Positions 6,800 to 60,041 of a DNA stretch of 64,000 nt are shown here, piece by piece. The stretch is taken from positions 248,001 through 312,000 of the forward strand of contig CAJINV010000020.1 in assembly GCA_905178155.1 (NCBI GenBank). Direction: 5' to 3'. The notes beneath the pieces were generated by a model. The model saw only the letters and a program-made list of their open reading frames with translations. It did not search any database and was not told the DNA's origin. The first letter of the stretch is position 1; each line of letters opens with the position of its first letter. The DNA comes from Amoebophrya sp. A120 (taxonomy: Eukaryota; Protista; Dinoflagellata). The position numbers and the translations under genes are program-made.

Positions 6800-9451
6800 T
6801 TACAACTCCGCGCTCTCTTTCTCCTCTTTTTCCTTCTTCGTTTCCGTCTTCGGGCCCTTCGGCTTCTTCTCCTAGGGTATGCAGCGAAAATAATACGACA
6901 CAGTCAGCACCAGATCGTGAGGAGGAGGAGGTCAAAGAAATACAGACGTGAAAATACCTCTACTGCACTTCTCCATGCGCATTTTTGTACTAAGTACCTG
7001 CAGCTGGTCTCGCTTGCGCGTAGTTGCACAACACAATCTTCAACTACGTATGGATCACGCGAATCAATATCATACAACTGCTTGTCGCGAACTGACAAAT
7101 TATCATGCGGAATTCATGCATGGAAAATACGCACGACCTAACACGTTGGCAGCAAAACACTGACAGGTCTCCGCACTCAGACGACTTTTTTCCTCTCTCT
7201 CCTGCGTGCCGAGGCTCTACAGTGACCGCATCATTTCTGGATAGTCTTCGGCTTCTTCGCTTTCTGCACCAGCTTGATCATCTTCAGGTCCGCCACGATT
7301 CCCTCCCGCATGCCCTTCTTCATGGTTTCCTGTGATTTGGCGGTCAACCGGGCCACCTCCGCGTCCACGGCCGCCAGGTCCTTGCTGCCCCACTTCTCCC
7401 ACGCCGACAGCTCGTCCTCGTCGCACCCTATCCACTGCAAACATGTCCTCGGTGTCTGGAATGTAGTTGTCATGCCAACATGTTGCGCACGGTCATGACC
7501 AGGCCAGCACGGCAAGACTAGGGAGCTACGCATGACAAGGTTATTTCTAACGGCTCCCTGATGCAGCCTTGTCCGCATGTCAAAAGAGTTCACATTTTCG
7601 CATCACAAACGGGGAGCGCTGATCGTGGTGCACAACATGCATCATACATTTTGGTTATTCTATGGTACCCCAATTGCATGTACGAAACTTCCAGACTTGT
7701 TCCAGACCCAGACATCATATCTTCCACGCATACAGCCCTCCTTGGCCGCGAAGTCGCACTTGACTACCCGTTTCTTTTTACCGTTGATCTTCAGAATCTC
7801 CATGCGGAAAACCAGCACGTCGCCGCCCTTGATCTTGGCCCCGCTTTATCCGTAGGAAAAACGTATCTACCCCGTTGTAGTCGAGATGTGAATAATGCTA
7901 GACAGATCCAGAAGCTTTGATGGGAGTAAGGCACGACAACTTTGGCTCCGTAGTGTTGTCGTTGGTGCAGCCGGAATCACAGATCGACTAATATCCCATC
8001 ATGATTAGTACAGCATGACGAACTATTCCATCCCGCCAAACACCACTAGACACTGACACAACTACAACTCCTCATGAGCAGGCTCCTGTACTGCATGAGA
8101 CACATTCTGTGGATGCAGATCTGCATGACAAATACGGGTAGACAAGTACGTTTTTACAGTTGCTACGCTGCCGCCGTCGCCGTAGCCCAATTCCGACGGG
8201 ATGTACATTTCCCACTTGTCTCCTTCCACTATCCCACAGAAAAAAGCAGGCAGGTTATATTTGAATTTGTAATGCAAAAATAAACACACAAAAAAATCTG
8301 TATTGCATATCCTAAGAAGCATGCTATGGGGCCGCCCATAACAGATTTTTCCGTGTAGTTATTTTTGCATTACAAATTATATGACCTGCCTGCTTTTTTC
8401 TGTGGGATATCCACCATGAGCTGCATAGCCTCGGTCCAGCCCTTAATCACCTGGTTCGGCGCGAAGGTGGTGGGCTCGCCGCGCTTGTTATGCATTGCAA
8501 AAGTACTATCGCACTCGTAGTGATCATCGCAATGATGCATGGCAAGTCTTTTGTCTTGAGGTGAAGCAGCATGACAAATTCCATTGGTCATCATGCTGAG
8601 GCAATTTGTAATGCAGTCACTACTAGTACGATAATTTTACCTTGCATACTTGTAGGAGGAGTCGAATTCCGCCCAGTCCGCCTCGTATCCTGAGTAAAAA
8701 CGTACCCACGCCAGAGTTGTAATGCAGATTTGCAAAGACAGGAAGACTTGTAATGCGCATCCCCATGAGAGCCATTTCCAATCGTGTTTTGAAATTTGTG
8801 ATGCTGTGAACAGGATGAGCAGATTAATCTGTGACGCGGCTGCACTTGCTAACCTGCACTACACTGCATAGTGCAACTTGTCATGCGTGACTCACAAAAC
8901 TCCTAGGTTTGTGTTGCAAAATCCTCATCCTGACTCTGGTGTGGGTACGTTTTTACTCAGGATACCTCGTCCTTGTCAATCATATCCGGGGTCAGCGCGG
9001 GCGTGGTGCCCGCGTAGTGGCACTCGCAGGGAGAGTATGCACTGCAAATTTACGTCTGGGTGTGGATTTGTACTAAAAATGCGCGTGGATCGATACGACA
9101 CGGATCTGCATTGCATGAAGAGGAGTTGTGAGCTTTTTCCTGCTCGTGCTGCAAGCCAATTATTTGTCATGTGATTTACGAATGAATCTGCGCTGGGTCC
9201 CCAGTACAAATAATTCATCGAATCTTTCCCGACCCAGACGATGACGAAATTGCAGTTGATATGGAGTCCTTAGTGGGCGCGTACTTCCCCTTGCCCTTTT
9301 TCAGCACCTTGTACTGCAGCCCGGACGGCAGCGTGACCACGCCTTCGCGCGCCTTGTTTTCCTCCAGGAACTTCAACCCTTCCTCGTTGGTTCCCGCCAA
9401 AACCGTAGTGGCCGCCGTGAGGGCGGACAGGTAGACGGAACGAGAGAACAT
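6800..9451 (-). CDS. Secreted/ER FKBP-type peptidyl-prolyl isomerase with C-terminal helical extension (~260 aa, 8 exons)
   Basis: Signal peptide; [82 protein letters not shown]; ends SAEL* (ER-retention-like); exon sum 783 nt. Confidence 0.9.
6874..7244 (-). mobile_element. Degenerate introner-type intron (FKBP intron 7)
   Basis: TAT...ATA ends, TSD lost; -1/+4 cut gives in-frame KPKKEKKPK; exact boundary uncertain. Confidence 0.5.
7425..7733 (-). mobile_element. Introner (GT-GT), FKBP intron 6
   Basis: TAT...ATA ends with internal TGTCTGG inverted blocks; TSD GGCTG/GGGTG; restores EGC-DEDE. Confidence 0.78.
7843..8166 (-). mobile_element. Introner (GT-GC), FKBP intron 5
   Basis: Degenerate TIR containing AAAAACGTA; TSD CAGCG/AAGCG; restores GGS-GAKIKGG. 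Confidence 0.75.
8226..8410 (-). mobile_element. Introner (AT-GG), FKBP intron 4
   Basis: Perfect 26-bp TIR TATCCCACAGAAAAAAGCAGGCAGGT; perfect 5-bp TSD GTGGA. Confidence 0.92.
8485..8649 (-). mobile_element. Introner (GT-AA), FKBP intron 3
   Basis: TATGCA ends; perfect TSD ACAAG; restores SSYK-RGEP. Confidence 0.82.
8682..8965 (-). mobile_element. Introner family A (GT-AG), FKBP intron 2
   Basis: ~32-bp TIR TATCCTGAGTAAAAACGTACCCAC..; perfect TSD CGAGG; homologous over its length to 26995-27273. Confidence 0.93.
9032..9262 (-). mobile_element. Introner (AT-CT), FKBP intron 1
   Basis: TIR TATCAACTGCAATTT / TATGCACTGCAAATT; flanks CTCCA/CTCTC; restores KDSPCECHY. Confidence 0.8.
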
Positions 9452-57977: not shown

Positions 57978-60041
57978 ATGCGGAACACTTTCGTTGCTCT
58001 CGCGGTCGGTACCGCCACCACTACCGTGGTTTTGGCCGATGTGGCGCAAAAGTTTGAAGATTTTAAGATGAAATTCAAAAAGAACTACAAGTCCGCGGCG
58101 GAGGAGCTGCAGCGCTTCAAAATTTTCGCGGCCAACATGGAAACCGCGGAGAAAATGTCCCTGCTGGGTATGACCTGCTCAAACGTTACAATCTCAAGCG
58201 TTACAATAGAGTCTGGGTTTTGTATTGCATGATGAGCATGACAGACTCGGGCAGCGTTCCAGTTTCTGCAATACAAATTTCGCGAGATTGTAGTGCGGAT
58301 TGGGAGTCCAGAACTTGTCATGCGCTATCCTATGAGGGTTGGCTAGATAATGCTCTTCTTGCAAGACAAATTCCAGACTCTATTGTAACGCTTGAAATTG
58401 TAACACCTGAGCAGGTTATACTGGACCCGAATGCGAAGTACGGGCATTTGTCCCCCATGGCGGATTTGTCCGAGTGGGAGTTCGGAAAATACAACACGTT
58501 GAAGGTACTGTGTCTTCCTAGCTCGAGCTTTTGCAGCAGAAAACAAAGGGCTGCTTGTATCAAATCTGGCATTGTTCAAAATGTTGTTTATCAAGCGTAG
58601 TGCGTGTTTATTGCTAGAGCAACTACATGATTCGCATGAAAAAAACTTTTTCTCCAGTCTAAATGTTTTCTCCAAAAACTACCTCCAGGTCACCAAGTCC
58701 GATCTCCTCGCGCACGAGCAGAAGGTGATTTCGGTTCCCGTCACCTCCGCAGCTTTGCCGACCGAGTTTGATTGGCGCAAGAAGGGCGCGGTTGGACCGG
58801 TCAAGAACCAGGCCCAGTGCGGGTCCTGCTGGGCGTTCGCGACCATTGCAAACGTGGAGGGGTCCAACAAGTTGGTAAACGGGGAATTGCTGAGTCTGTC
58901 GGAACAAGAGCTGGTGGACTGCGACGACAACGACAATGGTAAGGAAGTAAGTAAGTAAGAAGCACCTCTGTTTACTTTCGCTGAACAAGCGTGCTTTTTT
59001 CATGTAAGACCACGCTGCACAAGAGTGAGAAAGCACGGAAATAATGCGGAATTGCTGTGGGAGCAGCAACTTATATCGCGGACCCTGCAACCAAGAAAGA
59101 TTTAATCGTCCCATCGTGACTCTATCAGGTTGCAACGGCGGTCTCCCGTCCAACGCCTACAAGGATATGATTGACAACGATCTCGGCCTGGAGCTCGAGT
59201 CCGCCTACGGGTACGAGGCCCACGACTCGAAGTGCCGCGCGAAAAAGGGCCTGGAGAAGGTTTACCTGAAGTCCTGGGTGGCCATTGGGAGCAACGAGGA
59301 CCAGATGGCCGCCGCCCTGATGAAGTACGGACCGCTGGCGATTGGGATCAACGCCGGGCCCATGCAGCTCTACATGGGCGGGATCAGCGACCCCTGGATG
59401 TGCAACCCGGCGGCGGTATGAGAGAGAAAAAAGCATAGCATAAGCAGTTGTATTTGTAAAATGCAAAAAATGAATCTGGGAACTACACGAACAAACCTGT
59501 AATAGGCGGGTCTTTCAGAAGCCGAGTGTTTCGGGTACTTATTATGCAAGTCAGATTTGTCTGTCTACTCAGCTGTTTCTGCATTTTTGCAAATGTGACA
59601 AGCTAGCCGCTTTTTCTCCGGTATAGGCTTTGGACCACGGAGTGGCCCTGGTTGCCTTCGGCGAGGAAGATGGAAAGCTGTTTTGGACCATCCGGAACTC
59701 CTGGGGTATTTTTTTGATGCATGGTTAGGTAGGAGGATCTGCAATAAACGAAAGATATCTTCGAGCAGAACAAGCATGGACTCAGCATCTAGGTGTTTAT
59801 CTATCAAGCGGAAGAAAGCTGTTAATGCAACTTGCTTCTGATGTGCCTTGCGCAGGATCACCGCAGTGTACTAACATGCAAAGAAATAAAACAAACTGCA
59901 CATCACCAAACAGGCGCCGACTGGGGTGAGGAGGGTTACTACCGCATCGTGCGCGGGAAGGGCAAATGCGGGTTGAACCGCATGGTCACCTCCGCGATCG
60001 TGAAGAAAGCCAGTAACACCGCCACCGAACTGCTGGAGTAA
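57978..60041 (+). CDS. Papain-family (C1A) cysteine protease with signal peptide and I29 prodomain (cathepsin L/F-like), 6 exons
   Basis: [53 protein letters not shown]; intact Cys/His/Asn triad. Confidence 0.95.
58168..58424 (+). mobile_element. Introner (GT-GG) with ~48-bp TIR
   Basis: TATRACCTGCTCA...GTTACAATYTCAAGCGTTACAATAGAGTCTGG at both ends; flanks CTGGG/CTGGA; restores [10 protein letters not shown]. Confidence 0.92.
59416..59629 (+). mobile_element. Degenerate introner in the protease gene (GT-CT, or GT-AG if cut at 59626)
   Basis: Ends TAT..GAGAAAAAGC..TAGC inverted; flanks GGCGG/GGCTT. Confidence 0.65.

Follow-up and report, generated by a model that had tools for sequence, protein, structure and literature searches.

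A regularly spaced nine-base word in the introner elements of Amoebophrya sp. A120, a putative binding site of their mobilising transposase

Introners of the dinoflagellate Amoebophrya sp. A120 have, according to excerpts of the genome paper, ends made of TAT, seven bases and AAA, lie between direct repeats of 3-5 nt and are removed in a non-canonical manner (Farhat et al. 2021, PMC7789003). The same excerpts count 1,954 introner families and argue against a general mobilisation by transposases. One A120 family, family 38, is presented in extracts of a second paper as an introner with terminal inverted repeats (TIRs) and Copia/Gypsy-like frames (Gozashti et al. 2025, PMC12130899). Among other mobile elements, extracts of the sources cited describe phased subterminal repeats in Hermes (PMC10368747) and, in Muta1, 12-bp repeats that measure 15-16 bp together with their 3-4-bp linkers (PMC5499845). 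The target duplications given are 8 bp for Tol2, a hAT element, 8-9 bp for Muta1 and usually 6 bp for IS3EU/GingerRoot elements, which have TA..TA termini (PMC10045372, PMC6839031). In this work we focused on a 64,000-nucleotide stretch of the A120 genome (contig CAJINV010000020.1, positions 248,001 to 312,000, hereafter the window), through whose introner-like elements a nine-base word is scattered, TTGTVATGC or, on the opposite strand, GCATBACAA. An earlier note on this DNA had described the word and proposed that it either binds one shared trans-acting factor, a transposase or a splicing adaptor, or forms pairing units that fold the intron into a long hairpin. We found the word enriched, regularly spaced and conserved, in a way that points to a DNA site.

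The exact word occurs 49 times in the window (33 on the plus and 16 on the minus strand), against 2.13 ± 1.38 and a maximum of 5 in 100 dinucleotide shuffles, and its three variants rank among the top 9-mers over a third-order background. When sites were classed according to a hand annotation of the window, 42 fell in 25 TIR elements (6,183 bp; 0.35 expected by shuffle), 6 in 37 canonical GT-AG introns (6,463 bp; 0.15), none in about 25.3 kb of exons (0.25) and one, at 63918, in about 24 kb of intergenic DNA and untranslated regions (0.9). With up to one mismatch, observed and expected numbers were 82 and 8.8 in TIR elements, 24 and 6.7 in GT-AG introns, 5 and 10.7 in exons, and 17 and 17.5 in intergenic DNA. 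All 29 positions listed in the earlier note lie within 1 nt of a true match and inside TIR elements. The rarity of the word in exons and between genes is confirmed, as is its enrichment over a composition-matched background; its specificity for introners holds in part only, since the canonical introns, unmentioned before, are enriched too.

The carriers are about 110-330 bp long, start with TAT, finish with ATA and are flanked by a 5-bp target duplication, which is perfect in 261 of 390 elements whose calling did not depend on it and in 11 of the 25 in the window; among 517 elements, a set partly selected on 5 bp, perfect duplications were found at 5 bp in 371 and at 6 bp in one. According to end profiles most ends follow TAT-S-N4-G-S-AAA and some families have TAT without AAA; position 2 is A in 98% of the called elements. 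The TIRs had been said to differ among carriers, which applies to some other end types, but most share this consensus. The elements lie in coding exons, in both orientations relative to the gene. Contigs of probable RNA runs from one sample skip exactly the element plus 5 nt at no fewer than five elements of a gene that we take to be FKBP-like. An eIF3a exon of the window is 100% identical to a protein of Amoebophrya sp. A120, and a gene model from which nine GT-AG introns and, at 33990, one element plus 5 nt are taken out equals this public protein at 1,038 of 1,038 positions, one boundary pair having been revised after an initial mismatch with it. An open frame remains at all 25 window elements once the element plus 5 nt is taken out, and for the others this is the evidence of removal; between 33300 and 47000 the support comes from the public protein and from open frames. 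A DNA-type run shows a build-up of depth at the elements, and its contigs combine parts of different families. Ends, direct repeats, non-canonical removal, repetition and host all match, and the carriers are the A120 introner elements of Farhat et al.

Further copies were collected with a search pattern consisting of two sites and an end. It returned 128 loci, 123 of them on contigs JACKZZ01…; the five from other records were chance-like and were dropped, and all counts beyond the window rest on 507,709 bp after merging. These loci hold the families of the window, at identities up to 98%, and contain 1,382 exact sites, 1,056 of which lie in 464 called elements; on reversed sequence the element caller made one false call. 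Of the 489 elements in loci and window, 90% contain an exact site and 98% a near one, and the word is also present in most of 60 further elements, many of which have other end types. The 111 elements that match the search pattern were left out of the spacing and age tests, and pattern-selected sites out of the substitution test. The word is present on both strands and often several times per element, as described earlier, with 2-8 sites in the consensus of each of the 14 larger families, among which modules are shared.

In an unmasked comparison, 459 of the 489 elements fall in one network. With sites and ends masked, 16 families of at least three members were unlinked at E ≤ 1e-8 and only the pairs 1-3, 4-8 and 5-6 linked, more weakly, in a comparison whose power is reduced because masking covers 54% of the bases. 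An alignment of all carriers as one family had been proposed as the mark of simple shared ancestry, and here the outcome is mixed: masked families are mostly unlinked, yet ends and duplication make them one superfamily. Families called otherwise unrelated do have diverged interiors, but TAT..ATA ends and the 5-bp duplication are common to all and modules to several. Since ends, duplication length and modules are shared, the families are, on sequence comparison, one superfamily with diverged interiors and a single retained word, which was presumably inherited and then selectively kept.

Spacing was analysed, with weighting by family, in the 378 elements outside the search pattern and in 200 randomisations. 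Pairs in the same orientation peak at 31-33 bp (24.3 vs 4.8 ± 1.6, maximum 9.3 in the randomisations) and inverted pairs at 14-17 bp (6.7 vs 2.4) and 33-35 bp (5.9 vs 1.6), with a further peak at 46-50 bp. Many of the 31-33 units conceal a degenerate inverted copy at +16, and the spacing check suggested earlier thus reveals a preferred same-orientation spacing of 31-33 bp with inverted copies at 15-17 bp. None of the 378 elements has an inward-facing TTGT site within its first 30 bp. Positions 4-12 of the element ends are themselves a degenerate version of the word, in matching register (4.14 mismatches vs 5.94 ± 0.19). No strand bias relative to transcription was seen, with 22 and 20 sites in the window and 381 and 368 in 336 strand-called elements; the strand caller assigned 22 of 25 window elements correctly and left 122 of 464 uncalled for low score. 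Nor is the 3' end preferred, sense sites near it and mirrored sites near the 5' end numbering 126 each, and the five largest families occur in both orientations. Symmetry, spacing and occurrence in both orientations are the behaviour expected of a site in double-stranded DNA.

Substitutions were counted on trees of eight families, with a base-matched spacer rate as reference. On internal branches motif positions changed at 0.24 of the spacer rate (95 changes vs 400 expected), on terminal branches at 0.49 (425 vs 868), the two differing at p = 2e-11 (Fisher), and the free middle position changed like the spacer. If selection acts on the ability to be copied again, internal branches are expected to be the more constrained, as they are here. 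The motif thins in old copies: its density tracks the intactness of the duplication (rho 0.79, 25 window elements) and falls with distance to the nearest relative, from 10.4 to 7.7, 7.3 and 3.8 per kb. Four of the 25 window elements, all decayed, have no internal site within one mismatch and still interrupt open frames.

The array of GCATBACAA words is probably a double-stranded DNA binding site of the transposase that mobilises the elements. Several DNA-binding domains of this enzyme would load along the element and help to unite its ends, probably binding as inverted pairs 15-17 bp apart with a repeat of 31-33 bp, or about three turns of the helix. Further copies would be made only of elements whose sites are intact and correctly spaced, and such selective re-copying would keep the word even as the spacers and outer ends diverge into many families. 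Once an element has jumped for the last time, the motif would mostly decay, leaving traces in old and GT-AG introns. For the proposed shared trans-acting factor, conservation, regular spacing and strand symmetry thus speak in favour; a DNA-binding transposase is preferred to an RNA adaptor because strand and 3'-end biases are absent and four old introns lack an internal site, and the splicing adaptor is disfavoured.

Several observations weigh against a mobilising transposase. No transposase or autonomous element was found in about 0.57 Mb, and no putative transposase for A120 is reported in the excerpts of Farhat et al. 2021 (PMC7789003). The search covered 70 of the loci's 113 open frames, the longest ones, and 22 window frames, with one sub-threshold chance hit; seven longer elements have no open frame over 160 amino acids, and Rfam gave no matches. 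Length changes in the 31-33 intervals are not significantly rarer (p = 0.10), and, the families being related, the spacing counts are partly non-independent and the pattern partly ancestry. The depletion on terminal branches may stem from transposition events that the sample misses or from selection by the host. Copies with damaged duplications show no extra motif decay within families at the low resolution of this comparison (0.0384 vs 0.0389, with a very wide ratio interval of -3.6 to 3.3). Finally, 83 predicted GT-AG introns without detectable element homology hold 12 exact sites vs 0.9 expected and 55 near sites vs 21.

These 83 belong to 98 GT-AG introns predicted in the extra loci, the other 15 being element-derived; the finder is approximate, recovering 25 exactly and 28 by overlap of the 37 window introns, its training set, at a threshold of 33 set by eye. 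The motif is evenly distributed over the strands of the 83 introns (6/6), and its density of 0.64 per kb is close to the 1 in 1,571 bp of six window elements with damaged duplications and no relatives in the extra loci. In the window an exact site is present in 5 of 37 GT-AG introns, and two introns, at 33505 and 59416, are element derivatives (Table 1). We read the motif in GT-AG introns as relics of older families. Of the predicted introns, 37 of 98 start with GTAT, and G..G or C..C flank 86 of 517 elements; at 59416-59626, splicing at the GT-AG of G + TAT..ATA + G would leave three extra bases.

The presence of the word in GT-AG introns is also the main support for a role in the host, in which the word is kept after insertion because a DNA-bound protein marks the intron for a spliceosome lacking U1, alone or beside the role in mobility. 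The terminal-branch depletion, which is flat over branch-length quartiles (0.56, 0.58, 0.43, 0.46), the near site kept in almost all elements and the failure to detect U1 in A120, as stated in excerpts of PMC7789003, point in the same direction. We consider such a role unlikely, although it is the strongest competitor: the four window elements without an internal site must be removed all the same, that at 9036-9261 is skipped despite having no exact site, density falls with age, few GT-AG introns carry an exact site, and depletion is stronger on internal than on terminal branches. Somewhat more doubtful still is a combined scheme, in which one transposase-derived protein binds the array and both mobilises the elements and recruits the U1-less spliceosome cotranscriptionally, as a DNA-level, strand-independent mark for thousands of introns; many GT-AG introns would then be aged introners, and the cutter would leave in-frame scars of three or six bases.

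Neutral ancestry, with the word as a relic of an ancestral 16/32-bp repeat array under no selection, would account for the single unmasked network, the shared ends and modules and the DNA contigs that join parts of different families, and the spacers of the 31-33 units are more alike between families than when shuffled (0.34 vs 0.26). It is nonetheless improbable, given that the motif changes at 0.24-0.49 of the spacer rate with its free middle base unconstrained, and that masked families mostly fail to align.

Pairing of sense and antisense copies, which would fold the intron RNA into a long hairpin and bring the splice sites together, is very improbable as a general explanation. Sites do pair with each other in the long-hairpin elements at 8230 and 58169, and in modelled folds of 118 sampled elements 158 of 442 sites pair with another site, motif bases being paired more than spacers (0.73 vs 0.57). 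In the window, however, no more than 22 of 78 sites find such a partner, and a single orientation is present in 9 of 25 elements, among them two of the window's three representatives of the largest family, whose consensus holds six same-orientation sites. Pairing requires complementarity and not one fixed word, and the ends are already paired by the terminal repeats. The hairpin units of the earlier note, as judged from these folds, apply only to a few long-hairpin families. In family 0 (98 copies), 64 positions have changed alike on both arms vs 422 on one, which looks like conversion between arms or selection for pairing.

Least credible of all is a branch-point-like RNA signal, present on both strands so as to function in whichever orientation an element inserts: the branch-point consensus U-N-A-C is contained in the motif and a site that reads inward is frequent at 31-45 nt from an end, but most sites are far from the ends, three of the five RNA-supported introns (7847, 8489 and 9036) are without one near the 3' end, and this class, like that of RNA splicing enhancers, is rejected by the missing sense-strand and 3'-end preference, the two end counts being equal.

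All features are collected in Table 1, in which the asparagine-synthetase-like, FKBP-like and MORN-repeat labels are our assumption from translated motifs.

Table 1. Introner elements of the window and GT-AG introns that carry the word or derive from elements. Positions are those of the window; duplication gives matching bases out of five; skip gives the nucleotides missing from probable-RNA contigs.
Feature	Positions	Gene or strand	Observations
Old TIR intron element	894-1218	asparagine-synthetase-like gene (-)	exact site 1147; duplication 3/5
Decayed TIR element	1673-2002		no internal site; duplication 1/5
Decayed TIR element	3777-3983		no internal site; duplication 3/5
TIR element	7429-7732	FKBP-like gene (-)	exact sites 7467, 7530, 7600; skip 309 = element+5
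TIR element	7847-8165		exact site 8123; skip 324 = element+5
Long-hairpin element, family 11	8230-8409		sites 8267, 8367 within its arms; skip 185
Family 2 element	8489-8648		exact sites 8569, 8606; skip 165
Family 0 element	8686-8964		exact sites 8717, 8748, 8796, 8878, single orientation; very high summed DNA-contig depth
Old element	9036-9261		one site with 1 mismatch, none exact; removed nonetheless, skip 231 = element+5
Family 10 element	17498-17647		exact sites 17532, 17566, 17597
GT-AG intron	18513-18662	-	exact site 18637
Decayed TIR element	18741-19004		no internal site
Family 4 element	19089-19401		exact site 19349
Family 3 element	23918-24175		exact sites 24048, 24087 and 4 near sites
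Family 2 element	25368-25522		exact sites 25437, 25468 (31 apart)
Family 1 element	25873-26141		exact sites 25912, 26091
TIR element	26252-26515		exact sites 26292, 26340, 26379
Family 0 element	26995-27273		exact sites 27026, 27105, 27138, 27187
TIR element, different end type	27786-28001		exact sites 27818, 27865, 27913
GT-AG intron from family 2 element	33505-33623	eIF3a (+)	exact sites 33571, 33605; nhmmer E 7.5e-15; model equals public protein
Family 0-like element, sense opposite to 8686 and 26995	33990-34997	eIF3a (+)	exact sites 34021, 34100, 34911; nested insert ~34130-34859
GT-AG intron	35085-35244	+	exact site 35192
GT-AG intron	35393-35516	+	exact site 35466
GT-AG intron	36818-37066	+	exact site 37006
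Older TIR element	41926-42168		exact site 41964
Family 3 element	44940-45190		no exact site, 5 near sites
TIR element	46241-46425		exact site 46372
Decayed TIR element	56321-56539	MORN-repeat gene	no internal site
Family 3 element	56770-57026		exact sites 56809, 56875, 56986
Long-hairpin element, different end type	58169-58420		exact site 58315 and 7 near sites
GT-AG-bounded intron, G + TAT..ATA element + G, family 11 derivative	59416-59626	+	no site left; E 1.3e-12

All 25 window elements lie in coding exons and none in the 24 kb of intergenic DNA. The joined flanks are open in 313 of 320 cases (86% at random) and AT-rich in 4% (30% at random), and no target-sequence consensus was found at the insertion sites of window and extra loci. 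Distinct insertions inside the copies of families 0-7, in loci and window (e.g. 8376-8588), peak at 3 nt (249) and 6 nt (62), other lengths being 2 nt (81), 4 nt (61) and 5 nt (37), and deletions have no such peaks. These inserts look like scars of excision or repair, with lengths that are multiples of three in DNA whose reading frame is not selected. Among the six-base insertions, 28 of 62 consist of a duplicated 5-bp stretch and one more base (null about 1%), and they suggest an active enzyme that would cut DNA with a 5-bp stagger.

The GC-rich insert nested in the family 0-like element at 34130-34859 has short inverted ends and no Pfam match; in composition it resembles a repeat at about 63850-64000, which holds the lone intergenic site. 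Exact duplications flanking N positions at 61189-62400 and 62790-63846 (300 and 212 bases at 100%) are probable assembly artefacts. Between 3400 and 14300 lie five dispersed paralogs of a gene pair of no assigned function, one of them broken by the old element at 3777-3983. The region 29600-32500 has an AT-rich core (about 30380-31380) bordered on both sides by GC-rich DNA that includes a G run; it is possibly another repeat and gave no significant Pfam match.

The elements themselves are already published; the motif, its spacing and its decay were not found described in our literature searches or in the text of the Farhat supplement, supplementary figures S19-S25 and the family table of PMC12130899 apart. 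The motif suggests that at least the sampled families answer to one factor, as against some 1,950 families without a transposase in the genome paper. It bears on the movement and splicing of tens of thousands of A120 introners, for which it could serve as a bait for the factor and a signature for the autonomous element, and as a marker of the passage from young introners to ordinary GT-AG introns.

The excerpts of PMC7789003 describe terminal and direct repeats alone and no internal motif, spacing rule or decay. The sites studied here resemble the subterminal repeats of hAT elements (Hermes, Tol2) and of the MULE Muta1 and the inner direct repeats of Sleeping Beauty, in which, according to the extracts of these papers, a short word occurs in both orientations and spacing matters (PMC10368747, PMC5499845, PMC8151067). 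As with the subterminal repeats of hAT and MULE elements in those extracts, a related copy of the word lies inside the terminal repeat. The A120 elements differ in that their sites fill the whole element, that the elements are introns in exons and that binding is predicted from sequence; membership in hAT or MULE is ruled out by the 5-bp duplication and the TAT..ATA ends. Ends of the Ginger2 or long-terminal-repeat integrase type (TG..CA, duplication of 4-5 bp) fit in length, but the TA..TA termini do not, and in an apparent TGT..ACA family the TGT ends lay internal to a TAT family. With IS3EU/GingerRoot, as described in part in PMC10045372 and PMC6839031, the elements share TA..TA termini, GC-rich targets without a sequence consensus and the expected integrase-type chemistry; they differ from them in the 5-bp duplication and in internal repeats, of which those extracts make no mention. 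Family 38, from the same genome (PMC12130899, in extract), is a candidate for an integrase-like autonomous partner.

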